From Eubacteriales bacterium (lineage in GTDB: Bacteria > Bacillota > Clostridia > Oscillospirales > UMGS1783): DNA of 64,000 bases. The DNA lies in the NCBI GenBank assembly GCA_045541395.1, contig JAZQIZ010000009.1, positions 20,302 to 84,301 on the forward strand, given 5' to 3'. A program made the position numbers and the translations under genes. Below the pieces are notes generated by a model. It was given only the letters and a program-made list of their open reading frames with translations. It had not been told where the DNA came from and did not search any database. This document shows, piece by piece, positions 23,766-58,364 of this stretch (the stretch's first letter is position 1; every line of letters starts with the position of its first letter).

Positions 23766-23799
23766 GAAAAACCGACTTGTTTCGACAAGTCGGTTTTTC
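23766..23799 (+). terminator. Terminator-like hairpin directly after tRNA CCA
   Basis: Perfect 15-bp stem gaaaaaccgacttgt-ttcg-acaagtcggtttttc. Confidence 0.8.
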
Positions 23800-23801
23800 A
23801 A

Positions 23802-23973
23802 TGAAATTCGCCTTACGGCGAGTGAAATAGCTACACTATGAAATACGCTTTCGCGTATGAAATATTTGCTTCGCAAATGTTTAAGAGGCGAATTTTATTT
23901 CACTTTCTGCCTTAGCAGAAAATTTCATAATCCGTTAGGATTATTTCATATCGAGCATAAGCGAGATATTTCA
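23802..23973 (+). repeat. tRNA-associated 4xTGAAAT/4xATTTCA multi-hairpin element, copy 1
   Basis: TGAAAT at 23802, 23823, 23839 and 23858; ATTTCA at 23897, 23922, 23943 and 23968; separated by short hairpins. Confidence 0.85.
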
Positions 23974-24048
23974 TTTAATGAAAAATTTGTAGTGGTTCAA
24001 ATATATAGGTCACAAATTCAAAAAGGTTCGAAATTGTGCTCTCTTTCC

Positions 24049-24085
24049 ATAAAAACAACACCTCCTGCAGGTGTTGTTTTTTTAT
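24049..24085. terminator. Terminator-like hairpin
   Basis: aaaaacaacacct-cctgc-aggtgttgttttt. Confidence 0.6.
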
Positions 24086-24196
24086 AATTACAATAAGAAG
24101 GGATTTGTACCCTCCAACTTCTTTTTTATGCTATTTTCTTGTAATAGAAATTCAAATATGATAAAATAATCATCAAATACGAAGTAAGAGGTTTTT

Positions 24197-26749
24197 ATGA
24201 AAAAAACAGTTTTAGGAATCCTTGCTCACGTGGACGCAGGTAAAACTACTCTTGCGGAAGCAATATTGTATTCCACGGGTAAGTCCCGTTCCTTGGGCAG
24301 GGTAGACAAAGGGGATACAAATTTAGACACCCACAGACTTGAAAGGGAGCGCGGTATAACTATATTTTCCAGTCAGGCAGTATTCAATATAGGAAATATG
24401 GAAGTGTGTCTTCTTGATACGCCGGGCCATATTGATTTTTCTGCCGAAACTGAAAGAGCATTGCAGGTGCTTGACTATGCAATACTTGTTATAAGCGGAC
24501 TTGACGGTGTTCAGGCTCATACCCGTACTTTGTGGCGCCTTTTGCAGTTTTATAATGTTCCCACCTTCGTGTTTGTTACCAAAATGGATTTTGCCCGCAA
24601 TACTCAAACGGAACTTTTATCTCAACTTCAAAAAGAGCTTGACAGCGCCTGTGTAGATTTTTCTAATAAAGAGGCCCGTGATGAAGGCCTTGCCATGTGT
24701 TCTGAAAGGTTACTTGATAAATATCTTTCGGGAGAAGAAATAACTTCCGAGGATGCGGCAGGCCTAATTTTGCGCCGCAGGGCCTTCCCTTGTTATTTTG
24801 GTTCCGGTCTTAAGCTTGAAGGAATTGATTCTTTCTTGAATGGCCTTGAAACTTATACTGTTTCACAAAATTATCCCGATGTCTTTGGTGCCAAGGTGTT
24901 CAAGATCACCCGCGATAAGTCTGATCGACTGACTCATCTGAAAATTACGGGCGGTAAGCTTAAGGTCAAAGATACGGTAGACTTTGACGGTGTGCCTTCT
25001 AAAATCAATCAGATTCGAATATATTCAGGTGAAAAATATGTAACTGTTGATGAAGTTGAGGCCGGAAGTATATGTGCCGTAACAGGGCCCGGTAATACCT
25101 ATAACGGACAGGGAATAGGTTATGAGGCCAATTCTGAAAAACCTATTTTAGAACCTGTTATGAACTATAGGATAGTTCTTCCCAAGGATGTTGATGCCCG
25201 TACTATGTTGCCAAAACTGAAAATGCTTGAAGAGGAAGATCCTCAGCTGCATATTGGCTGGAATGAGTACCTGCAGGAAATTAACGTCAGTCTTATGGGA
25301 GAGGTTCAAGTTGAAATTTTTAAAAGCATAGTTGCGGATAAATTCTCTGTTGATATTGAAATAGATGAAGGCAGGGTATTGTACAAAGAAACAATATCCA
25401 ATAAAGTTGAAGGTGTTGGCCATTACGAGCCTCTGCGTCACTATGCTGAAGTCCATTTGATTTTAGAGCCACTTCCTCGGGGAAGCGGGCTTGTGTTTGG
25501 CAGCTGTTGCAGTGAAGATATTTTAGATAGAAACTGGCAAAGGCTTGTTATGGGGCACCTTTCCGAAAAAAAGCACCTAGGTGTTCTTACGGGATCACCT
25601 ATAACGGATATGAAAATAACCTTAGCCTCGGGTAGAGCCCATATAAAGCATACCGAAGGCGGGGATTTCAGACAGTCTACCTACAGAGCCGTAAGGCAAG
25701 GCCTGATGAGAGCTCAGTCTGTATTACTTGAACCTTATTACTCTTTTCGTATAGAGGTTCCAAGCGAACAGATCGGCAGAGTTATAAACGATATTCGTAT
25801 GCGCAAGGGAACCATGAACCGTCCTGAAGACTTGGGCGGTGTATCCCTTATAACAGGCAAAGCCCCCGTTGTGCAAATGAACGGCTATGCTTCCGAAGTT
25901 GCGGCATATACAGGCGGAAAGGGAAGAGTATTTTACGAGCTTGCTGGTTATGATGAATGTACTGAGACCGAAAAGGTTGTGAATGAGAAAAATTATAATC
26001 CAGAAAGTGACCTTGAAAATTCTCCCGATTCTATATTCTGTGCCCACGGAAGCGGTTTTCCCGTTAAGTGGGATCAGGTGCCTCAGTATATGCACCTTGA
26101 AAGCTGCTTGAAAAAAGAATCGGAAAAAGAGGTTCGCCGTCGTAATTTCAGTATAGATGACAAGGAACTGGAAGCAATAATGGAAAGGGAATTCGGTAAG
26201 GTTGAATATAATCTTTACCGACCTAAGCCTGTATATAAGGAAGAGGAACGGGTTGCTGTTCCGGTGGTAAGAAAGCAATACGTTATAGTTGACGGATATA
26301 ATCTTATATTTGCCTGGGATGAGCTTAATTCTATTGCAAAGGATAGTCTTGAATCAGCAAGAGAGCGGCTTATGAATATTCTTTCTAATTACAGTGCCTT
26401 TACACATATAAACGTTATTCTGGTATTTGATGCCTACCGTGTGCCCGGCGGAAAGGGTGAACGGTTTGAATACCACAATATTCATGTAGTATATACTAAG
26501 GAACACCAGTACGGCGATAACTATATTGAAATGCTGGTTGCCGAAATAGGTAAAAACGAATACGTAAGGGTTGTAACCTCCGACAGGCTTATTCAGCTTT
26601 CCGCTATCCGTTCAGGTGTTCTTCGTACATCCTCCCGTGAATTTATAGGTGAAATAAATAACGTGGAAGGCCAAATTGCAAACGTACTGTCAGATCTCGA
26701 AAAGCAAACCCCTAAAACAACCATAGGCGGTATGTTAAAAATCGAATAA
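24197..26749 (+). CDS. TetM/EF-G-like translational GTPase fused to C-terminal NYN (YacP/Rae1-like) RNase domain
   Basis: AHVDAGKTT, RGITI, DTPGHIDF, TKMD and EEDPQL; C-terminal IVDGYNLIF, VFDA and VVTSD. Confidence 0.85.
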   Translation: MKKTVLGILAHVDAGKTTLAEAILYSTGKSRSLGRVDKGDTNLDTHRLERERGITIFSSQAVFNIGNMEVCLLDTPGHIDFSAETERALQVLDYAILVISGLDGVQAHTRTLWRLLQFYNVPTFVFVTKMDFARNTQTELLSQLQKELDSACVDFSNKEARDEGLAMCSERLLDKYLSGEEITSEDAAGLILRRRAFPCYFGSGLKLEGIDSFLNGLETYTVSQNYPDVFGAKVFKITRDKSDRLTHLKITGGKLKVKDTVDFDGVPSKINQIRIYSGEKYVTVDEVEAGSICAVTGPGNTYNGQGIGYEANSEKPILEPVMNYRIVLPKDVDARTMLPKLKMLEEEDPQLHIGWNEYLQEINVSLMGEVQVEIFKSIVADKFSVDIEIDEGRVLYKETISNKVEGVGHYEPLRHYAEVHLILEPLPRGSGLVFGSCCSEDILDRNWQRLVMGHLSEKKHLGVLTGSPITDMKITLASGRAHIKHTEGGDFRQSTYRAVRQGLMRAQSVLLEPYYSFRIEVPSEQIGRVINDIRMRKGTMNRPEDLGGVSLITGKAPVVQMNGYASEVAAYTGGKGRVFYELAGYDECTETEKVVNEKNYNPESDLENSPDSIFCAHGSGFPVKWDQVPQYMHLESCLKKESEKEVRRRNFSIDDKELEAIMEREFGKVEYNLYRPKPVYKEEERVAVPVVRKQYVIVDGYNLIFAWDELNSIAKDSLESARERLMNILSNYSAFTHINVILVFDAYRVPGGKGERFEYHNIHVVYTKEHQYGDNYIEMLVAEIGKNEYVRVVTSDRLIQLSAIRSGVLRTSSREFIGEINNVEGQIANVLSDLEKQTPKTTIGGMLKIE

Positions 26750-26751
26750 AG

Positions 26752-26785
26752 TAAAAATTGTGCAGAAAAATCTGCACAATTTTTA
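26752..26785. terminator. Bidirectional terminator
   Basis: taaaaattgtgcaga-aaaa-tctgcacaattttta between convergent genes. Confidence 0.8.
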
Positions 26786-27721
26786 TATATTCCAATATTT
26801 TTTGCCGAAATCATCTAGTTCCTTTAAATAGCGTTTCTGGTCTTTCGGAAAGCTTAATCCATGGTCTGCTCCATCAACAATAACCAACCGTTTTTCATTA
26901 GAGCAGTTGTTGTAGTTCTCAACACTCATTGTGTATGGCACAAAACCATCGGATCTACCGTGAAAGAATATTGCAGGTACAGTACAGTGTTTAACCGCCT
27001 CGGAAGGGGAATCTGCCTCAAGATCAAAACCGCCGTACAGCCTTGCACCAAGCTTAATAAAAGGATAAACAAGCTTCTGAGGGAGCTTCATTTCAACAAT
27101 TATTTTTTTAATAATTTCTTTTGCGCTTGTGTATCCGCAGTCTGCAAGTACTCCTACAACGTTCTCGGGAAGTTCGTTTTGTGCCGCCATAAGCACGGTG
27201 GCGGCCCCCATGGAAATTCCTGTTATAATAATTTTGGTTTCTTTGCCGAATTTCTTAATGGCAAGGTCTATCCATTTTAAGCAGTCTTTGCTTTCCTTTA
27301 TTCCAAAAGTAATTGTATGCCCCTGGCTCTTTCCTGCACCGCGCTGGTCAACAAGCAGAGCGTTTCTGTTAAGTGCAAAACATCTTTGCACTCCACCGGC
27401 AAGATCTCTTTGTGCGCTGCCCTTATAGCCGTGAAACATAATTTCAATGGGCCCTCCGGGGTTACATTCATAGTATTTGCCGTACAAAGTAAGTCCGTCA
27501 TAGGAAGTAACCGAGAGCTCCTTGTTTGGTAGGGCGGCGGTTTGCTTTTGCCATTCAATCATAAGTTCTCTGTATTCCTCGTATTCTTTTCCGGGCGGAA
27601 TATCGTATTCAGATGTAGCCTTGCGCTTGAATGCGTAAAAAACTTTAAAATAACAGAATAACGAAATAATAAGTATGAGTATAATAAGCGCTCCTGAAAT
27701 TACAAATACCATTTTCATCAC
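26783..27721 (-). CDS. Alpha/beta hydrolase with N-terminal membrane anchor
   Basis: FHGY, GISMG nucleophile elbow, ADCGY, HG..D.FVP and GADHG; exact start uncertain. Confidence 0.85.
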   Translation of the reverse strand: MMKMVFVISGALIILILIISLFCYFKVFYAFKRKATSEYDIPPGKEYEEYRELMIEWQKQTAALPNKELSVTSYDGLTLYGKYYECNPGGPIEIMFHGYKGSAQRDLAGGVQRCFALNRNALLVDQRGAGKSQGHTITFGIKESKDCLKWIDLAIKKFGKETKIIITGISMGAATVLMAAQNELPENVVGVLADCGYTSAKEIIKKIIVEMKLPQKLVYPFIKLGARLYGGFDLEADSPSEAVKHCTVPAIFFHGRSDGFVPYTMSVENYNNCSNEKRLVIVDGADHGLSFPKDQKRYLKELDDFGKKYWNI

Positions 27722-27820
27722 CTAACAGTATTTTATCATCATTTTCTTCTGTTTTCAATTATAATTATCTTGCTTTTTATGAGCCTTTCCTTTACAATAT
27801 AAAAGACGAATTTAAAGGAG

Positions 27821-29095
27821 ATGCTAATGGAAGTAAATTATAAAAATAAAAAACGTTACAATACAGCAAAATATCCTATAAGACAGCCGGTCATAATCGT
27901 TTGGCTTATTTGGCTTTTATCTAAAATAATGCTTTTGAATAAAAAATATAAGGTTGAAAAGATTAATATGGATGGTTTGAAGCCTCCTTATATGATGCTT
28001 AGCAATCATATGTATTTTATTGATTTTGAACTTGCTGCTATGGGTACCTTGCCTTACCGCGTAAGCAACGTTGTCAGTATAGACGGTTATTACCGTCGCC
28101 CTTGGCTTTTGGAACTTATAGGCGCAATTTGTACCCGTAAGTTTACTATGGATCTTCATTTAATAAAATCTATAAACCGCGTTCTGAAAAAAGGCGATAT
28201 TCTTTCTATGTACCCCGAAGCAAGATATTCCCCTTGCGGTATAGAATCTTATATTCCTGAGGCCGTGGGTAAGCTTATTAAAATGAATAAGGTGCCTGTT
28301 GTTGCTGTGGTGCATCACGGAAACCATATCCATTCTCCGTTTTGGAACTTCCGTAAAAAGCGCAAGGCGCCTCTTTATACTACTATGACACAAATACTTA
28401 CTGCAGAGCAGGTTTCCCGAATGTCTGCGCAGGAAATTCATAATACCGTTGTTGAAGCCCTGCGTTATGATGATTATAAATATCAGAAGGAAAATAGTAT
28501 TCTTATAAAAGAACCATTTCGCGCCGAAGGCCTGCATAAAGTTCTTTATCAGTGCCCCCATTGTCTTACAGAATCCAAAATGGCTTCCGAAGGCACCGAA
28601 CTTTTCTGCAAAGAATGCGGCATGCGTTACAATATGAATGAGGATGGTACTCTTACCTGTCTTAACGGTGAAACGGTCTTTTCTCATATTCCTGATTGGT
28701 TCAGATGGGAAAGGGAGCAGGTAAGACAGCAGATCGATAACGGAACCTATTCTTTTGAGGATGAAGTTGAGGTTTATTCCTTGCCGCGCTGTTGGCGTTT
28801 TGTTCCCTTGGGAAAAGCTCATTTAAAACATGATCCGGAGAATGGTTTTGTGCTTGAGGGTAATTACAGAAACAGCGATTACCGGATTCAAAGAAAACCA
28901 TTGCAAACCAACAGCTTACATATAGAGTATGATTATTGCTATATCAAGCCCTTTGACTGTCTTGATATTTCCACCGAAAACGATTCTTTTTATTGCTATC
29001 CTACAAAGGAAAACGTTGTAACAAAGCTTGGCTTTGCAACCGAAATAATATACGAACAAAACCGAACCAAGAACAAACAAAAGACCATATCTTAG
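27821..29095 (+). CDS. Lysophospholipid acyltransferase family protein with C-terminal Zn-ribbon
   Basis: SNHMYFID (HX4D), YPEAR, and CPHC...CKEC. Confidence 0.75.
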   Translation: MLMEVNYKNKKRYNTAKYPIRQPVIIVWLIWLLSKIMLLNKKYKVEKINMDGLKPPYMMLSNHMYFIDFELAAMGTLPYRVSNVVSIDGYYRRPWLLELIGAICTRKFTMDLHLIKSINRVLKKGDILSMYPEARYSPCGIESYIPEAVGKLIKMNKVPVVAVVHHGNHIHSPFWNFRKKRKAPLYTTMTQILTAEQVSRMSAQEIHNTVVEALRYDDYKYQKENSILIKEPFRAEGLHKVLYQCPHCLTESKMASEGTELFCKECGMRYNMNEDGTLTCLNGETVFSHIPDWFRWEREQVRQQIDNGTYSFEDEVEVYSLPRCWRFVPLGKAHLKHDPENGFVLEGNYRNSDYRIQRKPLQTNSLHIEYDYCYIKPFDCLDISTENDSFYCYPTKENVVTKLGFATEIIYEQNRTKNKQKTIS

Positions 29096-29838
29096 ATATG
29101 GTCTTTTATAAATTTTTCTATAATTTGGCCGAATACACTTACTCCGTTTTCGTCTACAGCGTCATCGTGCTCACAGTGCCCGCCGTGGAGTACTTTAGAA
29201 AAAATTTTATTATCGTCATATTTAAAGTGTTTCAGGGTAGATAGTGTAAGCATTGTTTGTTCAAAGCGGTTTTCCATATCGTTATCGGAAACCAAGAATA
29301 TCATAGAGGAAGAATCATTTCCATCCGCACCTATAAAGTACAAAGGAGCGGTTTCGTCTACTATAAGACGTCTTGAATCGTACCCACGCTCTTTCAACAC
29401 ATTAAAATGAGCGGTAGGCTGTCCCGCATTGTGAACATAACCCTGAATGTCGATAGGTTTAAGTCCGTTTTTAGCAAGATAATTTTTATCGAAACACAGC
29501 ATCATAGAGATATATCCGCCGGCAGAAGAGCCGCCTACAAATATTTTATCGCAGTTGCAATAGTTCTTTATATTATTAAATACCCAAGCAACTGCGTCGG
29601 AGGCATCTTCTATAAAGTCGGGGAATTTTGCCTCAGGGTACATTCTGTAATTTGCGCTTGCAACAGCAATATTTTTGCTTGTAAGGTATTCGAAGGGAAC
29701 ACGGTTCCATTCCTTGCACCCCTCTACAATACCGCCGCCGTGAAAGAATACAAGTACTGCGGATACATCATTTTCGGGCAACAGCAGATCTAAAAGTTGG
29801 TCTTTGTCGTTATAACAAATGTCCTTTATTATTTTCAT
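29092..29838 (-). CDS. Alpha/beta hydrolase (HSL-like esterase)
   Basis: FFHGGG, ANYRMYP and GSSAGG motifs. Confidence 0.85.
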   Translation of the reverse strand: MKIIKDICYNDKDQLLDLLLPENDVSAVLVFFHGGGIVEGCKEWNRVPFEYLTSKNIAVASANYRMYPEAKFPDFIEDASDAVAWVFNNIKNYCNCDKIFVGGSSAGGYISMMLCFDKNYLAKNGLKPIDIQGYVHNAGQPTAHFNVLKERGYDSRRLIVDETAPLYFIGADGNDSSSMIFLVSDNDMENRFEQTMLTLSTLKHFKYDDNKIFSKVLHGGHCEHDDAVDENGVSVFGQIIEKFIKDHI

Positions 29839-29995
29839 AATAATACCTCCTTATATGTATTGTATCATTAAAGTGTTTCTGTTGCAAATATGAAAACTAT
29901 GAATGCTTATAGTTTTAAAGCTATAGGATATGAGTGTTTTAGTATTTCTAATTCAGGAGTGCCGGTGTTATAATGGTAGCAAAGGAGTTGATGTA

Positions 29996-30916
29996 ATGGC
30001 AGGAATAATTTTAAATCGTCTGGCGGTTATGTTTGTGTATTTGATTCCCGGATTTATTCTGTATAAGAAAAAAATAATTACTGATGCAGGCGCAAAGGAT
30101 ATAGGCAAGTTGCTTATATATATGATCCTTCCTGCGGCTATTATAAACTCTTATAATATTGAATATTCAAAAGAAAAGGTAATCGGCCTGCTTATTTCTT
30201 TTACCGTGGCTTTGGTGGCTGTAGTTATTTCGGTTGTTTTGTCAAGGTTGTTGTTTAAGAAAGATAAGCCTATTGAAATATTCGGCGCATCTTTCTCTAA
30301 TGCAGGCTTTATGGGTATTCCTCTTGTAGCAGCCGTTGTTGGGGCGGATGCGGTATATTACTGCGCGGCTTTTGTTGCTATTCTCAATATACTGCAATGG
30401 TCCTATGGTGTGTTTTTAATGACCGGTAATAAGACAAATATTTCTCCCAAAAAAATCATTTTTAATCCTATTTTGCTAAGCTTTGTTATCGGTATATGCC
30501 TGTTCTTTTTCCCGGTTAAGTTGCCCGAATTTTTCGGCGGCATACTAAGTACCGTAGCTTCAATGAACGCCCCTGTTGCAATGCTCGGTGTGGGAATCTA
30601 TCTTGCTCAGGTTTCTTTCAAAGAGCTGTTTTATGAGAAAATAAGCTATAAGGTTTCTCTTATAAGACTTCTTGTTATTCCGCTTATTACCGCTATAGTG
30701 ATAGCTTTGCTTCCTATGGGGGATTATACATTAAAGCAAACCCTTGTCATTGTAGCTTCGGCGCCTATCGGCTCGAATGTTGCGGTTTATGCTCAAATCT
30801 ATGGGTGTGACTATAAACAAGCAGTAAAGGAAGTAGTATTAAGCACTTTGCTTTGTATAGCTTCAATGCCTCTCATTATCGGAATCTCCGATTATATTCT
30901 TCAAAATATTCGGTAA
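29996..30916 (+). CDS. AEC family (auxin efflux carrier-like) transporter
   Basis: FSNAGFMGIP and NP motifs, about 10 TM helices; AAGGAG RBS before ATG 29996. Confidence 0.85.
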   Translation: MAGIILNRLAVMFVYLIPGFILYKKKIITDAGAKDIGKLLIYMILPAAIINSYNIEYSKEKVIGLLISFTVALVAVVISVVLSRLLFKKDKPIEIFGASFSNAGFMGIPLVAAVVGADAVYYCAAFVAILNILQWSYGVFLMTGNKTNISPKKIIFNPILLSFVIGICLFFFPVKLPEFFGGILSTVASMNAPVAMLGVGIYLAQVSFKELFYEKISYKVSLIRLLVIPLITAIVIALLPMGDYTLKQTLVIVASAPIGSNVAVYAQIYGCDYKQAVKEVVLSTLLCIASMPLIIGISDYILQNIR

Positions 30917-31739
30917 TTACTATTTTACAGCATCTTGCAGCTTTCGTAAGGTGCTTCTTGTTGTTAAGCTGCAGTTGAACGTACCGTTTCATGGGCATAT
31001 CCGAAACGATTCTGAATTCAAGCCCGTCATCAATAAATGGTTTCCAGGTGATTTCGGGTATAAATGCAATTCCTAAATTCATTTTTACAAGATCCCTAAG
31101 CATAGCAGGAGAGTCTACCGTCATAACCGTATTAATGGGAAAACTATGTGTTTTGCATAGTTCTTTTGTTATCCTGTGCAAATTGTGTGACGGACCAAGC
31201 TCAATAAATCCGTATTTGAAAAGATCCTTTGCAAATATCCGTTCCTTTTCTCTTAAAGGATGATTCTTGGGTAAAACCACACCTATCCGTTCTTCGGAAA
31301 GTAAAATAGAGTGGGGTTGAGGTGTGTAATCGGAATAAATCTTCAGGTCCCAATCGTCACATATGTCCTGAAAAATACGCGGCATGATTTTCGGGTAACT
31401 CTCTCTTATGTTATGAATAATATCAGGAATAAGAAGTGAGGCAGAATCCACGGCAATATTAATATTGGAAACAAGAGAGCCTTTGTATTCGTCAATTTCA
31501 GTACGGGCATTATCAATATCCTGAAGTATTCTTTCGCAATATCTTAATAGTATTCTTCCGGCATCGTTAAGAATGATCTTCTTTCCGATGCGATCAAACA
31601 GGGGAGTTCCAAGCTCCTCTTCCAGTCTTTTAAGCATCTGGCTTAAAGAAGGTTGAGCAACAAATAAAAGCTGTGAAGCTTTGGTTATGTTCTCCGTCTG
31701 TGCAAGAACTTTAAAATATTTTAACTGCAGTAATTCCAT
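30876..31739 (-). CDS. LysR family transcriptional regulator
   Basis: MELLQLKYF...NITKAS..LFVAQPSLSQMLKRLEEELG.PLFDR. Confidence 0.92.
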   Translation of the reverse strand: MELLQLKYFKVLAQTENITKASQLLFVAQPSLSQMLKRLEEELGTPLFDRIGKKIILNDAGRILLRYCERILQDIDNARTEIDEYKGSLVSNINIAVDSASLLIPDIIHNIRESYPKIMPRIFQDICDDWDLKIYSDYTPQPHSILLSEERIGVVLPKNHPLREKERIFAKDLFKYGFIELGPSHNLHRITKELCKTHSFPINTVMTVDSPAMLRDLVKMNLGIAFIPEITWKPFIDDGLEFRIVSDMPMKRYVQLQLNNKKHLTKAARCCKIVITEYFEEYNRRFR

Positions 31740-31829
31740 ATATAACTCCAATACTATAGATATGTACAATAATTATAGTTCAAAAACTATAAAAAGTCAA
31801 TAATGATATGGAAAACCGGCCGGTTTTTA

Positions 31830-31858
31830 TTGACATCCCCGTAAATTATTAATATAAT
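31830..31858 (+). promoter_or_regulatory. SigA promoter (perfect consensus)
   Basis: TTGACA-17 nt-TATAAT. Confidence 0.75.
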
Positions 31859-31894
31859 TTATAATAATGAATTAATTTTTTTCAGGAGGATATT

Positions 31895-33540: not shown

Positions 33541-33544
33541 TTTT

Positions 33545-33569
33545 AAGGCCGATTTTATCGGCCTTTTTT
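33545..33569 (+). terminator. Intrinsic terminator
   Basis: aaggccgat-ttt-atcggcctttttt. Confidence 0.8.
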
Positions 33570-33570
33570 A

Positions 33571-33599
33571 TTGATAAATTGTAAAATAGTTGGTATAAT
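33571..33599 (+). promoter_or_regulatory. SigA-type promoter
   Basis: TTGATA-17 nt-TATAAT with an extended TG. Confidence 0.6.
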
Positions 33600-33631
33600 C
33601 TTTTTAAGAACTTTATAAAAGGAGTTTTATT

Positions 33632-35183: not shown

Positions 35184-35240
35184 TAAAACAAATTTATGAA
35201 CATGCGGGCCACCGTTGTGTTTAGTTTAGGAGAAATTATT

Positions 35241-48036: not shown

Positions 48037-48037
48037 T

Positions 48038-49849: not shown

Positions 49850-49851
49850 AT

Positions 49852-50652
49852 ATGGCTCAGAAAGAAAGAATAGACGTTCTGCTGTGTAAAACAGGTCTTT
49901 GCGAAAGCCGTCAGAAAGCCCAGCAACTCATTATGGCAGGTGAGGTTTTTGTTAACGGTCAACGTGTAGATAAAGCAGGTACTCAGGTTACAGAGGATGC
50001 AAATATTGAAATTAAGGGTGACGTTTGCCCCTTTGTTAGCAGAGGCGGATATAAACTTGCAAAGGCTATCCCAACCTTTAATATAAATCTGGAAAACTGT
50101 GTTTGTATGGACGTAGGTGCTTCTACCGGCGGTTTTACCGACTGCATGCTTCAAAACGGCGCAAAAAAGGTTTATTGTATTGACGTCGGCTACGGTCAGC
50201 TTGCATGGAAGCTTAGATGCGATGAGCGTGTGGTTAATTATGAAAGGACCAACGTTCGTAATTTAACAAAAGAACAGGTTCCTGATGAGATCGACTTTAT
50301 TAGTATAGATGTTTCATTTATTTCATTAAAAATAGTTTTGCCTGTACTTAAGCAGTTTATGAACCCTGATACCCGTCTTGTTGCTCTTATTAAACCTCAA
50401 TTTGAGGCAGGGAAGGGGCAAGTCGGTAAAAACGGTGTTGTAAGAGAAAGGGAAATCCACTTAAGCGTTATAAAAGGTGTTCTTGAATTTTGCAAACAGG
50501 AAGATTTTTTGGTTACAGGGCTTGATTTTTCTCCCGTCAAAGGCCCCAAGGGCAATATAGAATTTCTTTTATATCTCGGCGGTCAAAGTGTGGAGATAGA
50601 CCCTGAATCAGTTGTTGATAATGCACATAATTTGCTGAACGGAGTTGTCTGA
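49852..50652 (+). CDS. tlyA: TlyA family rRNA methyltransferase
   Basis: S4 domain, VSRGGYKL, DVGASTGGFTD and KPQFE motifs. Confidence 0.95.
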   Translation: MAQKERIDVLLCKTGLCESRQKAQQLIMAGEVFVNGQRVDKAGTQVTEDANIEIKGDVCPFVSRGGYKLAKAIPTFNINLENCVCMDVGASTGGFTDCMLQNGAKKVYCIDVGYGQLAWKLRCDERVVNYERTNVRNLTKEQVPDEIDFISIDVSFISLKIVLPVLKQFMNPDTRLVALIKPQFEAGKGQVGKNGVVREREIHLSVIKGVLEFCKQEDFLVTGLDFSPVKGPKGNIEFLLYLGGQSVEIDPESVVDNAHNLLNGVV

Positions 50653-50653
50653 T

Positions 50654-51514
50654 ATGAAAAAGTTAGGAATACTTCCAAACCCGGAAAAGGATCCGCGCCT
50701 TAAAAGCAGTAAAAAAATATGTTCAACCTTAAAAAAGCTCGGCGCTGATGTTTATACTCTTCCTGAGTATGGCGATTTGGCCAAGGACATTAATATAGTC
50801 GATAAGGAAACTCTTTATAAGGAGGTCGAATGTATTATTGCCATTGGCGGTGACGGTACAATGCTTCGGGTGTCTCATGACGCCGCTAAAGCAAAAAAGC
50901 CAATTCTGGGTATTAACTTCGGTAAGGTGGGCTATATGGCCGAGCTGGAGTTTTCGGAAATAGAAATGCTAGCTGCTCTTATTGAGGATAATTATACCTA
51001 TGATAAGCGTAGTATGCTTGACGTAATTGTAATGCGAAACAGTAAAGAGCTTTACCGTTCTATCGCCCTTAATGATGCAGTCGTTACAAAGGGTATCGTA
51101 TCCAGGCTTGTGGATATTGAAATTTACACTGAAAAAGGCTTTATAACCTCTTATAAGGCCGACGGTATTATTGCATCAACTCCTACCGGTTCAACAGGCT
51201 ATTCTTTAGCCGCCGGCGGCCCTATAATCGAGCCTTCAAGCCGATCTATAATAGTATCTCCCATAGCACCTCATTCTTTGGTTAACCGTTCCATAGTATT
51301 TGACGATGAAGCCAAAATAACCATTATTGCAAAAAATATTGCCAGCAAGGACGCGTATCTTGATGTTGACGGCTTTGAAAACGTGCGTCTTCAGGAAGGT
51401 GATGAGGTTGTTGTTACCCGCTCCAGAAAGTATATCAACCTTATAAAGATCAAAAATCTTAATTTCTATGAAATACTTAACAGCAAACTTGGTAACGGAG
51501 GAACACGCAAATGA
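50654..51514 (+). CDS. nadK: NAD kinase
   Basis: GGDGTML, GIN.G..G, ALND and TPTGSTGYSLAAGGP motifs. Confidence 0.95.
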   Translation: MKKLGILPNPEKDPRLKSSKKICSTLKKLGADVYTLPEYGDLAKDINIVDKETLYKEVECIIAIGGDGTMLRVSHDAAKAKKPILGINFGKVGYMAELEFSEIEMLAALIEDNYTYDKRSMLDVIVMRNSKELYRSIALNDAVVTKGIVSRLVDIEIYTEKGFITSYKADGIIASTPTGSTGYSLAAGGPIIEPSSRSIIVSPIAPHSLVNRSIVFDDEAKITIIAKNIASKDAYLDVDGFENVRLQEGDEVVVTRSRKYINLIKIKNLNFYEILNSKLGNGGTRK

Positions 51515-51966
51515 AATATCAAAGACATCTGAAGATATTGGAGCTGGTGCAGTCTGAAGTGATAGAAACCCAAGAACAGCTTCTGGACAGACTCAGACAA
51601 GCAGGTTTTGATATTACACAGGCAACAGTATCCCGCGATATAAAAGAGCTTCGTCTTTTTAAAAAGGTAGACCGAAACGGTAATACCCGATATGATATAG
51701 AAGGCAATACAACTGAGCACGATAAGGGCAGTGAGCGTTACCAGAGCATTCTGCGCCATAATATTCGTAACATTGATTATGCCGGTAATCTTGTTGTTAT
51801 TAAGTGCTTTTCCGGTATGGCGCAGGCAGTTTGTGCAGCTATAGATTCAATGCATTTTGATAATACCGTAGGCACTATAGCCGGTGACGATACGATTTTT
51901 ATGGCAGTTCGTACCGAAGAAGCAGTAAAAACAATAATTTCCGACTTAAATAAAATTCTTCAGTAA
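51511..51966 (+). CDS. argR: Arginine repressor
   Basis: TQATVSRDIKEL and GTIAGDDTIF motifs. Confidence 0.95.
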   Translation: MKYQRHLKILELVQSEVIETQEQLLDRLRQAGFDITQATVSRDIKELRLFKKVDRNGNTRYDIEGNTTEHDKGSERYQSILRHNIRNIDYAGNLVVIKCFSGMAQAVCAAIDSMHFDNTVGTIAGDDTIFMAVRTEEAVKTIISDLNKILQ

Positions 51967-51981
51967 AAAGGGTGAAACGCT

Positions 51982-53652
51982 GTGCTGGAACGTTTGTATA
52001 TTGAAAATGTTGCAGTAATTGAAAAATCTGAAATTGAATTTACCGATGGGTTGAATATTCTCACCGGTCAGACAGGTGCGGGTAAATCCATTATTATAGA
52101 TTCACTTTCTCTGCTTTTGGGGCAGCGCGCATCTAAGGAGCTTATACGAACAGGCAGTAATAAGGCTTACGTAAGTGCGGTTTTTTCTGAAGTAGGCCCT
52201 CGAGTAGAAGCCAAGCTCAATGAATGTGATATACCTATGCAGGATGATAACACTCTCTTTATAGAAAGACAGTTGTTGGCTGACGGGAAAAGCAGCTCTA
52301 AGATCAACGGTCGCCCCGTTTCTTTGATGACCTTAAAGGAAATAGCAGAGCCTCTTGTAAATATTCACGGTCAGCATATGAATCAGCGTATTTTAGATCC
52401 GGCTCTTCATATAGAATTTTTAGATTCCTTTGCAGAAAATGAAACTGAAAGAAACACGTATTACGAGCTTTATAAAAAAACAATGGAGGCTCGAAGGGAG
52501 CTTATTCGCCTTCAGAATGCCGCAAAGGACGCTCAGGATAAGTCCGATGTAAACGATTATCGCATCAATGAGCTTACAAATGCTAAGCTTAGTTTAGGTG
52601 AAGAAGAAGCCCTTACGGAAAAGCGCAATATAATGGTCAATTCCGAAAAGTTAAGCGTAGCCGTAGAAGAATCGGTATCGTTGCTTTGTGAAACCCAGGG
52701 TAATGCATTGGAGAATATATCTCAGGTCGCAGGAGTTCTGTTAAAAGCAGGGCAGTTTTCTTCCAGGCTCTCAGATCTTTCCGCAAAGTTAAATAATCTT
52801 TTACCTGAGCTTGAGGATATATGCATAGCCTTAAAGGATATGCGTTCGGAGATAGACTTTGAGCCCAGAGAATTAGATAATATAGAATCCAGATTAAGTC
52901 AGCTTTCATTAATAAAGAAAAAATACGGCGGTACTATTGAATCTGCAATAGAACTGCTTGAAAAATACGTTTCGGAAAAAGAACTTTTTGAAAACTCTGA
53001 TGAGAAAATAGCAAAACAAACAGAGGTGTTCAATAGCCTGGCTCAGGAGCTTGTGGGAGTTAGCGCAAAACTTACAGAATCCCGTAAAAAAGCGGCAGAG
53101 CGTCTTTGTAAGGTTGTAATGGAAAAGCTCAGCTTTCTTGATATGGAGAAATGTCTGTTTGAGGTAAAGATTTCTCCCCTTGAGAAATTTGCTCCTTCGG
53201 GCAGGGATAATGTTGAATTTTATATCAGCGCTAATATCGGTGAGGAAACTAAGCCTCTTGCTAAAATTGCTTCCGGCGGTGAGCTTTCACGTATTATGCT
53301 GGCAATTATAAATGCCCTCAGTGAAAAGAATATGCCGGATACGCTTATTTTTGATGAAGTTGATACCGGCGTAAGCGGGAAAACCGCTCAAAAAATCGGT
53401 GTGCTTATTAAAAGTGTTTCAAGAAACACTCAGGTTCTCTGCGTTACCCATCTTGCACAGATTGCAGCAATGGCTCACAGGCATCTGTTTATTAGCAAGA
53501 GTACCGATGGAGTTAAAACCTATACTAAGGTTACTCCTCTTTCAGAAAATGAAAGAAGAGAAGAGCTTGCCCGTATTATTGGCGGTGCAAATATATCGCA
53601 GGCTGCCCTTAATATGGCTGAAGATCTTATTTTACAGAGTGATCAATATTAA
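51982..53652 (+). CDS. recN: DNA repair protein RecN
   Basis: TGQTGAGKS, IHGQH, ASGGELSR, FDEVDTG and THL motifs. Confidence 0.95.
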   Translation: MLERLYIENVAVIEKSEIEFTDGLNILTGQTGAGKSIIIDSLSLLLGQRASKELIRTGSNKAYVSAVFSEVGPRVEAKLNECDIPMQDDNTLFIERQLLADGKSSSKINGRPVSLMTLKEIAEPLVNIHGQHMNQRILDPALHIEFLDSFAENETERNTYYELYKKTMEARRELIRLQNAAKDAQDKSDVNDYRINELTNAKLSLGEEEALTEKRNIMVNSEKLSVAVEESVSLLCETQGNALENISQVAGVLLKAGQFSSRLSDLSAKLNNLLPELEDICIALKDMRSEIDFEPRELDNIESRLSQLSLIKKKYGGTIESAIELLEKYVSEKELFENSDEKIAKQTEVFNSLAQELVGVSAKLTESRKKAAERLCKVVMEKLSFLDMEKCLFEVKISPLEKFAPSGRDNVEFYISANIGEETKPLAKIASGGELSRIMLAIINALSEKNMPDTLIFDEVDTGVSGKTAQKIGVLIKSVSRNTQVLCVTHLAQIAAMAHRHLFISKSTDGVKTYTKVTPLSENERREELARIIGGANISQAALNMAEDLILQSDQY

Positions 53653-53685
53653 AAAAGAAGATAGACGTTTGGTCTATCTTCTTTT
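53651..53685. terminator. Bidirectional terminator
   Basis: aaaagaagatagac-gtttg-gtctatcttctttt. Confidence 0.8.
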
Positions 53686-53688
53686 ATT

Positions 53689-54102
53689 TTACTTTTCTTT
53701 AATGGTATCAAGTATTTCCTGTAAAAGCTCTGCTTCCTTAGAAGGCTTGGGAGGTTCGGGCTTGGGCTCCTCCTTCTTTTTACGGAACTTGTTCATAATC
53801 TTAACTACTGTGAAAATCACAACTGCAATTACAAGGAAATTTACTATCGCCTGAATGAAATTACCGTAGTTAATAGCGGCCTCCGCTGTAGTTTCGGTTG
53901 CTTCTCTTATAACAAGACGAAGGGTGGTAAAATTAACACCGCCGAATATCCAGCCAATAAAGGGCAGTACGATATCGTTTACAATAGAATTAACAATAGC
54001 CGTAAAAGAACTACCCATTACAACGCCGACAGCAAGGTCAATAACGTTACCTCTGGAAATAAACTCTTTAAATTCTGCAATAATGCCTTTCTTTTTCTCC
54101 AT
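53689..54102 (-). CDS. mscL: Large-conductance mechanosensitive channel
   Basis: EFKEFISRGNVIDLAVGVV, INYGNFI and LLQEILD; AAGGAG RBS before ATG 54102. Confidence 0.95.
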   Translation of the reverse strand: MEKKKGIIAEFKEFISRGNVIDLAVGVVMGSSFTAIVNSIVNDIVLPFIGWIFGGVNFTTLRLVIREATETTAEAAINYGNFIQAIVNFLVIAVVIFTVVKIMNKFRKKKEEPKPEPPKPSKEAELLQEILDTIKEK

Positions 54103-54118
54103 TTTCAAAGCTCCTTTA

Positions 54119-54805
54119 TTATAAATAAAATTCTTCAAGATCATCAAGTCTGAGAAGTGAAGGTTTAAGCCCTGTATCAATGTCTATCCAGGTCCCTGTT
54201 TTAAGTATTTTCCCGCTATATTCCTCTCCGTAATATTCGGTAGGTGTGTGGCCAAAAACCGTAGTAATGTCGTCAAAATACCGTGTAGTTATTTCAGGTC
54301 TGTTCCAAATAAGCTCATCTGCCGAATAATCGGATATCTTTCTGTCAGGGCTGAAATTCTCAAGCCCACTGTGAACCAATAAGAAATCTCTGTGGTTTAC
54401 AGTAATACATTCGTAAAGGGGCGCCTCTTTTAAATACTCTAAGATATCCTGAGTATTTTCCTTGTCTGTTTGCCTTAAGGCCTTTAAGGTAACGTCGCCG
54501 CCATTATTCATCCAACCTGATAGTAGCCTTAATTTATCGTAGGAAAGAGACCATATAAATTCCTCGCTGACTTCATTGAAAATGAAGTTGCAAACCATCA
54601 TCATTGCCTCATGGTTGCCAAGTATAAGCTGCATGTTTGCCTGTTTTAGTATATAAAGCAAAAGTTCAATACCGTGCTCTCTACGGTCTATAACGTCACC
54701 GAGAATATATAAAAAATCATTATCATTGAAATTAGCCCTGCTCAGTAGTTTTTTGAACTCATAAAGAGATATTCCGTGCAGGTCAGAAGTAACGTATGTC
54801 ATCAA
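54119..54805 (-). CDS. Calcineurin-like metallophosphoesterase (PrpA/lambda-type Ser/Thr phosphatase)
   Basis: SDLHG, LGDVIDR, GNHE, VHSG, FGHTP and IDTG motifs. Confidence 0.85.
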   Translation of the reverse strand: MMTYVTSDLHGISLYEFKKLLSRANFNDNDFLYILGDVIDRREHGIELLLYILKQANMQLILGNHEAMMMVCNFIFNEVSEEFIWSLSYDKLRLLSGWMNNGGDVTLKALRQTDKENTQDILEYLKEAPLYECITVNHRDFLLVHSGLENFSPDRKISDYSADELIWNRPEITTRYFDDITTVFGHTPTEYYGEEYSGKILKTGTWIDIDTGLKPSLLRLDDLEEFYL

Positions 54806-54854
54806 TTGATCACCAATGTTTATTATACAAAATTCTTTTGCTTTTTACAAGTGG

Positions 54855-56411
54855 TTAATCTTCTTTATAACATTCAAATATTTCGTCAACACGTTGCTGC
54901 TCTTTTTCTTTGTTTTTGGTTAACGCACTTATAGCCGGAACAACTATCATCGAAACCGCCATTGCACATACGCCCATTTCAGGTGACTTAGATGCCGCAG
55001 TGGCAAAGTCTGAAGTAAGGGTTATAGCAAGTGTTGAAATACCAATAGTAAGCAAACCTGCTATCATGCCTGAAATTGCACCTATTTTTGTGGTCTTTTT
55101 CGAAATAATGCCCCAAATGTACGGGCCAATAAAGCAACCGGAAACAACACCCCAGGAAAAGGACATAAGACTTACTATAATAGGTATGTTCTGTGTTGCA
55201 AATATAAATGAACAGGCAATAAAAGCCAAACAAAGCAGTCTTGTTATCATAACCTGAGAATCGGGCTTTATGGGCTTTTTCCTTAAGGAAGGAATAAGGT
55301 CAATAGAAACTGCCGATGCAGAGGTAAGAACAACCGCCTCTAATGTAGACATAGAAGCCGCAAGAAGCAGTATCATCATGATTGCAAATAAAATCATTCC
55401 AAACGTCTGATTGCCCAATACCTTAATAAGTAAAGCCGGAATAACCGAGTCAATTCCGCCTTCGGGAAGCTGCCCGCCAAGTATAAGCCTGGATGTGCTG
55501 CCAATAAGGTATGCACCGCAACCTATGATCGCGCAGAAAATAGTTGAAATAACAGTGCCGCGCTTTATTGCTGCGGTATCTTTAATGGCGTAGAATTTGC
55601 CTAACATCTGAGGCAGCCCCCAGGTGCCAAAGCTTGTAAGCATAATATTGAAGCAAAGGAACTTAAAGGAGGAACCACCGAAAATGCTGGTTAACTGTTT
55701 TCCTGTAGTAGGCATAGGATCGTTGGGAAGTGGTTCAAAGTTTCTAAGGTTCTCTATAAGTCCTCCAATACCGCCAACACTTTCGTGGTTAAGCACAGTT
55801 ACAATAAGGCAAATAACGCCTACTATCATAATAATGCCCTGTACAAGATCTGCGTAAGCAGAAGCAACGTAGCCGCCTATTACAAGGTATATGGCAGTTA
55901 AACAAGCAATAATAAGCATCCATACCCAGGTCTCAACACTGGGAAATACAGAGCTGAATAATGCGCCGAGTCCCTTATATACTGCGGCAGAGTAGGGAAC
56001 AAGGAATACGAAAATAATAATTGCCGCGCCTATTTTCATTGCCTTGGAATTGTATCTCTTTTCAAAAAATTCGGGCATAGTCTTAGTGTTAAGTTTTTTT
56101 GTTATCTTTCTTGTACGGTTTGCAAATAACAGCCAGGATAGTAAGCAGCCAAGCACTGCATTGCCAATGCCGATCCATATTGCGCCAATGCCTATATTCC
56201 ATCCGTGCTGACCTGCATATCCAACAAAAACAACCGCTGAAAAATAGGTGGTTCCGTATGCAAATGCTGTCATCCAGGCACCAATGTTCCGTCCGCCAAT
56301 AAGAAACCCGTCTAAGGTTTTGGATCTTCCGTAGCTGATACAGCCAAGAAACGCCATTACAACGGCGTATGCACATAGTGCAATAATTGTGTAAAGTTGT
56401 ACGTTGTTCAT
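54855..56411 (-). CDS. Sodium:solute symporter (PutP/SSS family)
   Basis: F.IGGR, WIGIGN, GG..A....D.VQG, GLPQ and AASMST motifs; about 13 TM helices. Confidence 0.9.
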   Translation of the reverse strand: MNNVQLYTIIALCAYAVVMAFLGCISYGRSKTLDGFLIGGRNIGAWMTAFAYGTTYFSAVVFVGYAGQHGWNIGIGAIWIGIGNAVLGCLLSWLLFANRTRKITKKLNTKTMPEFFEKRYNSKAMKIGAAIIIFVFLVPYSAAVYKGLGALFSSVFPSVETWVWMLIIACLTAIYLVIGGYVASAYADLVQGIIMIVGVICLIVTVLNHESVGGIGGLIENLRNFEPLPNDPMPTTGKQLTSIFGGSSFKFLCFNIMLTSFGTWGLPQMLGKFYAIKDTAAIKRGTVISTIFCAIIGCGAYLIGSTSRLILGGQLPEGGIDSVIPALLIKVLGNQTFGMILFAIMMILLLAASMSTLEAVVLTSASAVSIDLIPSLRKKPIKPDSQVMITRLLCLAFIACSFIFATQNIPIIVSLMSFSWGVVSGCFIGPYIWGIISKKTTKIGAISGMIAGLLTIGISTLAITLTSDFATAASKSPEMGVCAMAVSMIVVPAISALTKNKEKEQQRVDEIFECYKED

Positions 56412-56449
56412 TTCTTTTACCTCCTGAAATGCTGTGGAAAACAGAGTTT

Positions 56450-56728
56450 AAAATAAAAAAACTCTGTATTCCTATAATGAATACAGAGGACGATCTTAGC
56501 CGTGGTACCACCTCAGTTTACCGCGCCTTCACAGGTGCGGCCTTTTCAAGTGTCTAACAACACTCTTGTTCTGTTACGGGAACTCCCGTTGCAGCCTACT
56601 TAATTATTTGTTCGGTGCACTGCTAACAGGATGTATTCAGAATTAAACTCCCCATTGCCTTTCACCAGCCGGCAACTCTCTGAAGGCTCGTTTAAAACCT
56701 ACTTGTTCCTGCTCAAACGCATTTCATG
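56450..56728 (-). promoter_or_regulatory. T-box riboswitch leader, probable Tyr (UAC) specifier
   Basis: On the minus strand: AGTA, AGAGA and GGTGAA stem I motifs, GAA-TAC-A specifier (56633-56635), T-box AGGTGGTACCACGG (56500-56513) and terminator 56455-56488. Confidence 0.9.
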
Positions 56729-56734
56729 TTCAAT

Positions 56735-56763
56735 ATATTAGCACTTTAACGCAGCAAAGTCAA
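56735..56763 (-). promoter_or_regulatory. SigA promoter of T-box leader
   Basis: Minus-strand TTGACT-17 nt-TAATAT. Confidence 0.65.
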
Positions 56764-56771
56764 TATTATTT

Positions 56772-57083
56772 TTAAAATTTTTTGCCGAATTTATCAAGGT
56801 CGACTCTATAGTCAATTACCTCAATTCCTTCATTTTCAAGCCGTCTCTTTTGCTCTTCTATACCACCGAAGGCATAATTTCGGCTTAAATTACCGTTTCG
56901 GTCAACCACCTTATAGCAGGGGAATTTATCACCGTCAGGGTTAAGGTGTAAAGTATTTCCTACAGCACGGGAATAATTCTTATTCCCCAAAAACCTTGCC
57001 AGTTCCCCGTATGTCACAACTTTTCCGTAAGGTATCTCAGTTAAAAGCCTGTATAATTCTTCTTTAAAAAAACCGTTTCCCAT
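56772..57083 (-). CDS. MGMT/Ogt family DNA alkyltransferase, single domain
   Basis: IPYGKVVTYGELA, RAVG, PCYKVV and LENEG motifs. Confidence 0.85.
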   Translation of the reverse strand: MGNGFFKEELYRLLTEIPYGKVVTYGELARFLGNKNYSRAVGNTLHLNPDGDKFPCYKVVDRNGNLSRNYAFGGIEEQKRRLENEGIEVIDYRVDLDKFGKKF

Positions 57084-57202
57084 TTTTTAACCCTTCTTTC
57101 AAAAGAAAAGATATTGTATTGTGACAAGGTCTTTCTTGCGAAAGACTGACCAAACGGAGCAGAATCGAGGTAAGAGTAAGCAAAAGTAGCGTACATAGCA
57201 GA

Positions 57203-57751
57203 TTATCTCTTAACAATTGGAATCGTGAACGAAGACCCTAGTTTATCTTCAAAAAACAGCAAAGATAAATCTTCACTTGCGCCATACAAATACAAATCAG
57301 AATACATTGATTGCCATTTTTCTCGTTGTAACTCCGTCGTTTGCATAAGAAGATTATATGCTTTGTCACATCGGCTTATCCACAAATCATGATACAGGGA
57401 ATTTGATATAATCCTATTCTTCAAGTCAGACACAGAATGTATTTTGAAACGCTCACACCATACTATATCATTTTTATATAGCATTTGACCGGTTGCAGAA
57501 GTAACGATGTCGTCTAAATCGTATACAATAGGTACCATATTAACCCCCATCGTATATGCAAGAAATGCTCTGCTGTGACCATCAGTTAATGTCAGGCTAT
57601 CGTTCCCGAAATCGTGGACGGGTAAAGGATCAAAATTACTTAAATCGGAAGGGTTAAACCAACTTCTAATATTAGTTAACTTATCTTCGTTTAAAAAGAT
57701 TTGGCTCACACCTAAATCAGCAACAGGAAAATATTGTATCCCGTTAAACAT
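57203..57751 (-). CDS. Hypothetical protein with ParB/sulfiredoxin-like N-terminal motif
   Basis: L..SQ.FL...K, PLPV and LTDGHSRAF motifs; ATG overlaps the upstream stop (TAATG at 57749-57753). Confidence 0.6.
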   Translation of the reverse strand: MFNGIQYFPVADLGVSQIFLNEDKLTNIRSWFNPSDLSNFDPLPVHDFGNDSLTLTDGHSRAFLAYTMGVNMVPIVYDLDDIVTSATGQMLYKNDIVWCERFKIHSVSDLKNRIISNSLYHDLWISRCDKAYNLLMQTTELQREKWQSMYSDLYLYGASEDLSLLFFEDKLGSSFTIPIVKR

Positions 57752-58095
57752 TATTTGTTCTCCTTTGCGGTGTTGATGGAGGCAATCAAAATGCGGCGGA
57801 TTGTACCGCATTGGTTGAAAAGGTCAACAGCGGTTTCTCTGTCCAAAATATCGGATTTTACAAACAGTTCCAACCAATATTCCGTTTCGTAGCATTCCTT
57901 CAAGGCAATCTGCAGTTTTGCAATGAAGTCAGGCTTTCCGTGAGCATAGTTTGCTTCGTGGATGTTTGCGCCAACGGAGGTTGCAGAGCGTTCCAACTGA
58001 TTAACGAGGGAATAATGGCCTTTGATATTTTCGCAAAGTTTGATAATTTTAACTGCAAAGTCTGTTGAAAGTTTCCGAAGTTTAGATTCTGCCAT
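57751..58095 (-). CDS. Four-helix-bundle protein (23S rRNA-IVP / Avd-like family)
   Basis: QLERSATSVGANIHEA and FIAKLQIALKECYETEYWLEL family signatures; AAGGTGG RBS. Confidence 0.9.
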   Translation of the reverse strand: MAESKLRKLSTDFAVKIIKLCENIKGHYSLVNQLERSATSVGANIHEANYAHGKPDFIAKLQIALKECYETEYWLELFVKSDILDRETAVDLFNQCGTIRRILIASINTAKENK

Positions 58096-58119
58096 ATAAG
58101 CACCACCTTGCTTATTGCA

Positions 58120-58147
58120 ATTATACCATATCGATTAGAATATTCAA
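58120..58147 (-). promoter_or_regulatory. SigA-type promoter for four-helix-bundle gene
   Basis: Minus-strand TTGAAT-16 nt-TATAAT with an extended TG; the -35 lies 2 bp from the last box of the hairpin element. Confidence 0.6.
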
Positions 58148-58149
58148 AG

Positions 58150-58319
58150 TGAAATATCCTTTGGATGTGAAATAATGACCTGCGGTCATTGTGAAATATT
58201 GCGTCTTTGCCGCAATGTGAAATGAAATTTGCCTACATTCGCGTCAGCGAATATTTCACATGTACGAAGTAAATATTTCACAGCGGAGCTGTTTCACTTG
58301 CCCGTCAGGGCAAATTTCG
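58150..58319 (-). repeat. tRNA-associated 4xTGAAAT/4xATTTCA multi-hairpin element, copy 2
   Basis: On +: TGAAAT at 58150, 58168, 58192 and 58218; ATTTCA at 58253 and 58275, GTTTCA at 58291, ATTTCG at 58314; hairpins between boxes. Confidence 0.85.
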
Positions 58320-58321
58320 TT

Positions 58322-58364
58322 GAAAAGAACCCACACTTGTCGTAGACAAATGTGGGTTCTTTTC
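58322..58364 (-). terminator. Terminator-like hairpin directly after tRNA CCA
   Basis: On the minus strand: gaaaagaacccacatttgtc-tac-gacaagtgtgggttcttttc. Confidence 0.8.

Follow-up and report, generated by a model that had tools for sequence, protein, structure and literature searches.

Paired Gut-1 arrays behind tRNA genes are the front ends of bounded, stackable cassettes in gut Clostridia

Introduction

Integron gene cassettes with their attC sites, tRNA-targeted integrative islands, and repetitive extragenic palindromic (REP) sequences, REPINs and bacterial interspersed mosaic elements (BIMEs) with their REP-associated tyrosine transposases (RAYTs) are the systems against which we compare the elements reported here. 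We analysed 64,000 nucleotides of a Clostridia genome (Eubacteriales bacterium, lineage UMGS1783; assembly GCA_045541395.1, contig JAZQIZ010000009.1, positions 20,302 to 84,301), hereafter the window, in which two copies of an array of short boxes and hairpins stand directly behind two tRNA genes. The array motif is itself known, as Gut-1; the novel part is that both copies are the front ends of bounded cassettes. A cassette runs from the CCA end of a tRNA gene to the CA that closes a conserved tail, can be stacked, and is mobile between tRNA genes and bacterial families. It is a new variant of the tRNA-targeted small mobile elements.

By analogy, the cassette would work most like integron cassettes or REP/RAYT pairs, yet it falls outside both groups. 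With integron cassettes it shares small stackable units, variable passengers (GNATs, lipoproteins), putative single-stranded DNA (ssDNA) hairpin sites and the position of the newest unit, which adjoins a fixed site. It differs in that no integron integrase or attI lies beside the stack, each unit brings a promoter and a terminator of its own, any tRNA 3' end can serve as the fixed site, and the hairpins form short multi-module arrays. Insertion at tRNA and transfer-messenger RNA (tmRNA) 3' ends and tandem accumulation recall tRNA-targeted islands, but there is no integrase inside and one lineage uses many different tRNAs. As in REP, REPIN and BIME systems, gene-less palindromic doublets outnumber gene-bearing copies and the repeated word tracks the clade of its cognate protein; here, in contrast, the cognate gene is a non-catalytic PF05635 gene, there is no GTAG tag, and tRNA ends are strongly targeted and passenger genes carried.

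Both components of the cassette have been described separately. The main text of Weinberg 2010 (PMC2864571) presents Gut-1 as a gut-only RNA, giving neither function nor context, and a table of that paper rates it as certainly RNA. Our literature searches found no description of the cassette; the supplements of Weinberg 2010 (Additional files 1 and 3) may bear on context. As for PF05635, it is described as related to Avd (PMC10053308), a positively charged protein of which five protomers are reported to bind one RNA stem-loop together (bioRxiv 2023.10.23.563531).

Cassette structure and boundaries

The left arms of the two elements scored 58 and 61.1 bits with the Gut-1 covariance model (RF01706), against a gathering threshold of 50, and the right arms matched it on the opposite strand at 43.2 and 48.1 bits, below that threshold. 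Since the matches lie on both strands, each element is a head-to-head pair of Gut-1. An earlier sequence-only reading of this DNA had seen no named family here, a claim refuted by the very Rfam scan it had proposed. Each arm fits the model over its whole length. The Rfam model differs in describing three hairpins in one arm on one strand, whereas here that arm is half of a mirrored pair in a bounded cassette, with a loop signature that points to the opposite strand and to DNA.

Re-reading the sequence at both loci confirmed the layout that had been proposed, including the 16-nucleotide second unit in both copies (Table 1). In copy 1 the TGAAAT boxes start at 23802, 23823, 23839 and 23858 and the ATTTCA boxes at 23897, 23922, 23943 and 23968. 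Copy 2, on the minus strand, has left boxes at 58319 (CGAAAT), 58296 (TGAAAC), 58280 and 58258, and ATTTCA boxes at 58223, 58197, 58173 and 58155. Copy 1 has four plus four boxes; copy 2 has in addition a fifth, overlapping ATTTCA at 58228, which the earlier reading had absorbed into the centre. The first base of each copy lies directly 3' of the CCA of its tRNA, tRNA-Arg(CCG) or tRNA-Pro(CGG), as annotated by ARAGORN; the latter gene has a perfect sigma-70 promoter at 58502-58474. The two copies are 71% identical. Arms of boxes and hairpins are not a product of chance: under a strict definition the genome, which is 97.5% complete, holds 11, and 8/8 simulated third-order Markov genomes hold none. 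Folding z-scores were -7.4 and -8.2, with the tRNA and terminator included in the folded sequence. A TGAAAT arm follows 7/29 terminal tRNA/tmRNA ends, and all seven left arms found in the genome are behind a tRNA; two further tRNAs are followed by the same design in another word. The earlier reading was right that the family is structured, mobile and linked to tRNAs, that it exists in several copies and that its modules are equivalent.

Table 1. Features of the two cassettes and their tRNA targets (window coordinates)
Feature	Position	Strand	Source
tRNA-Arg(CCG), target of cassette 1	23689..23765	+	ARAGORN, Rfam
Cassette 1 first hairpin, terminator-like with A-tract/T-tract, starting on the base after CCA	23766..23799	+	
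Cassette 1 left arm, four TGAAAT boxes and mini-hairpins, Rfam Gut-1, 58 bits	23802..23879	+	
Cassette 1 centre, complementary to 5' strand of unit 1 (alternative closing helix)	23880..23896	+	
Cassette 1 right arm, four boxes, second Gut-1, 43 bits	23897..23973	-	
Tail A, 67-nucleotide conserved cassette end finishing in CCA	23983..24049	+	
Terminator after tail A	24051..24081	+	
Decayed terminator-like hairpin after tail C	57101..57136	-	Read from sequence
Tail C, 57-nucleotide conserved pyrimidine-rich cassette end, weak 10-nucleotide periodicity, finishing in GCA	57137..57193	-	
Passenger gene, 182 amino acids, start overlapping PF05635 stop	57203..57751	-	
Four-helix-bundle gene, PF05635 / TIGR02436, 114 amino acids, Avd-like	57751..58095	-	
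Promoter-like site and ribosome-binding site	58103..58147	-	Consensus match only
Cassette 2 right arm, second Gut-1 on opposite strand, 48 bits	58150..58228	+	
Cassette 2 left arm, Rfam Gut-1, 61 bits	58235..58319	-	
Cassette 2 first hairpin, terminator-like, starting on the base after CCA	58322..58364	-	
tRNA-Pro(CGG), target of cassette 2	58365..58441	-	ARAGORN

The arrays are only part of the unit. Cassette 2 spans 58364-57137 and comprises a terminator, the arrays, a promoter, a PF05635 gene, a passenger gene and a 57-nucleotide tail ending in CA. The earlier view, confined to the arrays, had missed the gene, promoter, passenger and tails, as well as the loop signature, which points to ssDNA on the opposite strands. 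The promoter-like site has its -35 two bases from the last box and an extended -10. Copy 1 is gene-less and 91% identical to the array of a full cassette at tRNA-Gln on contig C28, which has a PF05635 gene and an acetyltransferase-like passenger and is closed by tail A; the first hairpin of cassette 1 also has a near-identical counterpart at that tRNA-Gln. Copy 1 is likely a gene-less deletion derivative.

Tails mark the far boundary. Tail C occurs in 22/301 genomes; among 29 distinct copies, 25 end in CA; a hairpin comes immediately after 20 of the 29, and another array after 10. Tail A, with a T-loop-like word 16 nucleotides before its end, also closes cassettes in other genomes. When it was sought by its 5' part alone, four of six metagenome loci ended in TTCCA, one was cut by the contig and one had no such end. 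The terminator that follows it in the window would be the displaced terminator of the tRNA. A third tail type exists. We also considered that the tails might be relics of a coding 3' end.

At the near boundary, 31 of 150 parsed arms are linked to a tRNA or tmRNA, and in 31/31 of them the hairpin starts within about three bases of the CCA. Sequences after tails align, from their first bases, with sequences after tRNA CCA ends. For example, the sequence after the tail of locus L473 is 98% identical over 144 nucleotides, across families, to that after the CCA of tRNA-Gly at locus L262. Further cassettes begin immediately behind a tail, just as they begin immediately behind a tRNA CCA end, and stacks are the result; direct tandem units occur at L287 and L025. 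We also examined contigs from DNA sequencing runs of one study. The passenger gene had no cover in 4/4 runs, the fit of contigs over the PF05635 gene stopped at 57757, and one contig joined a tail end to a cassette start. These contigs, which may come from other organisms, hint at other passengers and at tandems but are not proof.

Passengers vary. An open reading frame starts at the PF05635 stop in 12/34 loci, with 12 different N-termini. In the window the 3' end of the PF05635 gene contains the ribosome-binding site of the passenger gene, which is translationally coupled to it. The passenger has no Pfam or NCBIfam hit, and a ParB-N-like character suggested by atlas features is a lead only. 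One of its homologues (50%) lies behind a distant PF05635 gene elsewhere; three others do not.

The PF05635 gene and its link to the arrays

The 114-amino-acid protein scored 88.6 bits for PF05635 (cut-off 33.8) and 99 for TIGR02436 (cut-off 24), and is similar to PDB 2RLD, a structure with five chains (E 1e-21). These hits and the 2RLD similarity are its likeness to Avd of diversity-generating retroelements (DGRs), from which the cassette gene differs in having no reverse transcriptase, template or variable repeat. It is, further, not in a ribosomal RNA intervening sequence, and it lies between a repeat array and a passenger gene that it drives.

Gene and array go together. Both PF05635 genes of this genome are behind an array. 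Among 41 genomes, in which kin are not independent, PF05635 was present in 16/16 with at least four Gut-1 matches, 5/7 with one or two and 3/18 with none. When PF05635 genes were selected by protein, the TGAAAT word lay upstream in 23/26 at an identity of at least 62% (leaving out the genome's own two genes and one without upstream DNA), and in 1/30 below 62% (leaving out seven rows that were duplicates or had no upstream DNA). Other PF05635 clades have other 7-base words, with or without hairpins. We think it rather likely that a PF05635 ring binds the array.

At three loci (L032, L033, L036) PF05635 genes have plain tandem repeats of 7-base words on both sides, inverted with respect to each other in the manner of transposon ends and lacking hairpins.

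Folding of the arrays

We counted covariation by script over 53 distinct full elements with four plus four boxes. The earlier reading had suggested that left boxes might pair with right boxes in a nested trunk; 0/43 deviant box pairs were compensated, and we rejected this fold. A different long-range helix is supported, in which the 5' strand of unit 1 would pair with the centre. The centre contains a perfect 7-nucleotide complement in 39/53 elements, which represent seven sequence types; 1000 partner shuffles gave 11 on average and never more than 19.

The hairpin loops have a marked polarity. In 301 distinct units, a set that includes some chance or plain tandem-repeat loci of other phyla, none of which was removed, 182 have GNA/GNNA loops on the ATTTCA strand (106 triloops, 38 GNRA, 38 GNYA) and six on the other strand, and GNRA or UNCG loops on Rfam's strand number two. 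Of 17 tandem mismatches, 13 are GA/AG when read on the ATTTCA strand. The polarity holds in both oppositely facing arms (81/121 and 50/66; control terminator hairpins 14/295) and in loci picked by protein alone (95/104). In cassette 1 the loops of the left arm are GNA/GNNA on the minus strand, and the right arm includes a hairpin whose tandem GA/AG mismatch is on the plus strand. A review (PMC13037366) attributes extraordinary stability to such mini-hairpins when they are made of DNA, and much lower stability when they are made of RNA. The arrays therefore probably fold as ssDNA mini-hairpins, and Rfam may have modelled Gut-1 on the wrong strand and as the wrong kind of molecule.

Spread and search for a mobiliser

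Within the family, the orthologous PBP-tRNA-Arg(CCG) and tRNA-Pro sites are either occupied by other words or empty. The PF05635 protein of the window is 90, 89 and 88% identical to proteins encoded in three other families, each at another tRNA, compared with 84% to its own paralogue and 75-77% within the genus. Named records with the same design are mostly from gut Clostridia. In a viral collection 3/121 pattern loci were real arrays, and two relatives of the PF05635 protein were found; the cassettes of that sample are therefore not carried chiefly by phages.

Neither cassette contains an integrase open reading frame. The genome has three tyrosine recombinases (contigs C1 and C15), none near a cassette. 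A large serine recombinase on contig C2 was rejected as a candidate; it lies beside a different repeat family whose end is unlike the tails. We also rejected the tRNA-end duplication typical of integrase islands, as none of at least 10 nucleotides was found in 31 cases (three with little downstream DNA). Reverse transcriptase (RVT_1), Y1 (Y1_Tnp) and the DEDD recombinase of IS110/IS1111 (PF01548) were dropped as mobilisers, since none was found in this genome; the lack of an RVT_1 match also separates the cassette from DGRs, that of Y1_Tnp from REP/RAYT and IS200/IS605 systems, and that of PF01548 from IS110/IS1111.

Neighbouring elements and genes

Several other repeats share features of the design. 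A second tRNA-downstream family, with a different palindrome, duplicates the tRNA 3' half and is tandem-stacked (C2:26409-27150, C8:21971-22700, L207, L224); its C2 copy is the one beside the large serine recombinase. Mirrored hairpin arrays with other words occur at C14:17300-17530, C26:23-210, C17:42145-42320 and C25:16036-16200; the words are an 11-base one behind tRNA-Asn and tRNA-Leu and GTGATAT behind protein genes, where two elements with sibling words lie. In genomes of genus g3 without Gut-1, another long palindromic element directly follows tRNA CCA ends (L184, L203, L208, L222). Outside Clostridia, single TGAAAT hairpin arms occur in Akkermansia (L065, L071, L129).

In the window, 24197-26749 (+) encodes an 850-amino-acid fusion of a TetM/EF-G-like GTPase and a YacP-like NYN nuclease domain, whose score for the tetracycline-protection family falls short of the threshold (421 vs 775 bits). 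A stand-alone methylguanine-methyltransferase DNA-binding domain gene (56772-57083, -) is just outside tail C, and a T-box leader (56483-56726, -; 109 bits) precedes a sodium:solute symporter gene downstream of cassette 2. Upstream of tRNA-Pro, a ComEC-like metallo-beta-lactamase-fold gene (58728-59624, -) is kept in place in relatives.

Discussion

We lean slightly towards reading the unit as a mobile cassette whose ssDNA hairpin modules are read by a PF05635 ring and which is inserted at CA by an enzyme acting in trans. The mirrored Gut-1 arrays would form the front of a cassette running from the tRNA CCA to the tail CA and would yield ssDNA mini-hairpins; the Avd-like four-helix-bundle protein of the cassette would bind these, the enzyme would insert the cassette at its CA ends, and the whole would move as one unit between tRNA genes, stacking as it does. 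Binding of the protein would also autoregulate the PF05635 gene, for the last box lies against the -35 of the promoter in the cassette.

Several observations weigh against this reading. The PF05635 protein of the window is near neutral (pI, the isoelectric point, 7.7), unlike Avd, and its agreement with the word could stem from simple linkage. Some arrays lie on both sides of the PF05635 gene, and many are behind protein genes instead of tRNAs. Tail A or C was found in only 20/62 PF05635 loci, 12 of which were fetched only through the tail. The 41 post-tail sequences and the 233 post-tRNA sequences include no exact pair of empty and filled alleles, and contigs, which cannot tell circles from tandems, gave no circle. 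There is no catalytic mobiliser in the cassette, nor are the three enzymes named above found in the nearly complete genome. Loop polarity is weaker in arrays with other words (41/66). Nearest-neighbour energies for RNA put Rfam's TGAAAT strand ahead by about 4 kcal/mol (in 52/53 left and 46/53 right arms), a preference that comes from the U-G pair at hairpin bases, and DNA folding parameters are neutral between the strands.

Of the alternatives, the one that survives best, unlikely as we consider it, is that the cassettes spread through homologous recombination of the host, or through transformation, by way of short flanks that are conserved: the tRNA T-arm/CCA and terminator on the left, a tail or array on the right. 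The arrays would then be an operator for the four-helix-bundle protein and the tails hitch-hiking relics, an arrangement resembling the minimal mobile elements of Neisseria. It would account for the lack of a dedicated recombinase, which is missing from the cassette and, as regards three families, from the genome; for locus L025, where arrays of different words stand between one and the same terminator and tail; and for tails in only part of the cassettes; the contact between the last box and the -35 fits an operator. Yet tails end sharply in CA before unrelated terminators, and new cassettes start at exactly that base. The same tail is also present at unrelated tRNAs, so that a first arrival needs a non-homologous step, and an operator in duplex DNA would not need strand-biased mini-hairpin loops. 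Precise recombination at a CA core, as opposed to homologous exchange, we consider somewhat less likely than not.

Gut-1 could instead be a true RNA, its left arm made by read-through from the tRNA and its right arm antisense, with the Avd-like ring binding RNA modules, which it might deliver to a passing reverse transcriptase that is primed at the CCA ends of tRNAs. The certainly-RNA table rating of Weinberg 2010, the grip of five Avd protomers on an RNA stem-loop (bioRxiv 2023.10.23.563531), the RNA energies and the insertion exactly at CCA, tmRNA included, are in its favour. We find it improbable, since a terminator-like hairpin lies between tRNA and array and the loops on Rfam's strand are hardly ever GNRA or UNCG, their complements being of DNA type with GNYA as common as GNRA. 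RVT_1, moreover, is found in 0/12 genomes of the family, and no A-specific or poly-A hallmark was noticed, though no search was aimed at one. Non-autonomous REP/BIME-like repeats moved by a RAYT/Y1 HUH transposase of some strains only would fit the dispersed palindromic modules, clustered with other palindromic repeats at gene ends, and Y1 enzymes do use ssDNA hairpins, but Y1_Tnp is in only 1/12 genomes of the family (1/11 relatives) although arrays are in 9/12, and the array-tied gene is PF05635 and not a transposase, which makes this very improbable.

Returning to the mobile cassette, a more far-reaching version, which we regard as doubtful, would be integron-like gene capture in gut Clostridia. 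Any tRNA CCA would be an attachment site; a PF05635 pentamer would read the 7-base words between ssDNA mini-hairpins and pair front with tail, and a host enzyme would excise and reinsert the cassette at CA, so that passenger genes pile up in stacks. In that case Gut-1 would be a site of DNA recombination instead of an RNA, and Avd would have been recruited from PF05635, an ssDNA adaptor with sequence specificity.

The Gut-1 motif and the PF05635 protein, both of them orphans for a long time, are joined here in one bounded unit with named ends. Because they stand in one unit, both can be tested with a 114-amino-acid protein and short oligonucleotides. If it is true that the cassettes capture and stack passengers, they would constitute a route by which gut bacteria exchange genes that is widespread and has so far gone unrecognised, because relatives of PF05635 are present in 123/301 genomes sampled from the order.

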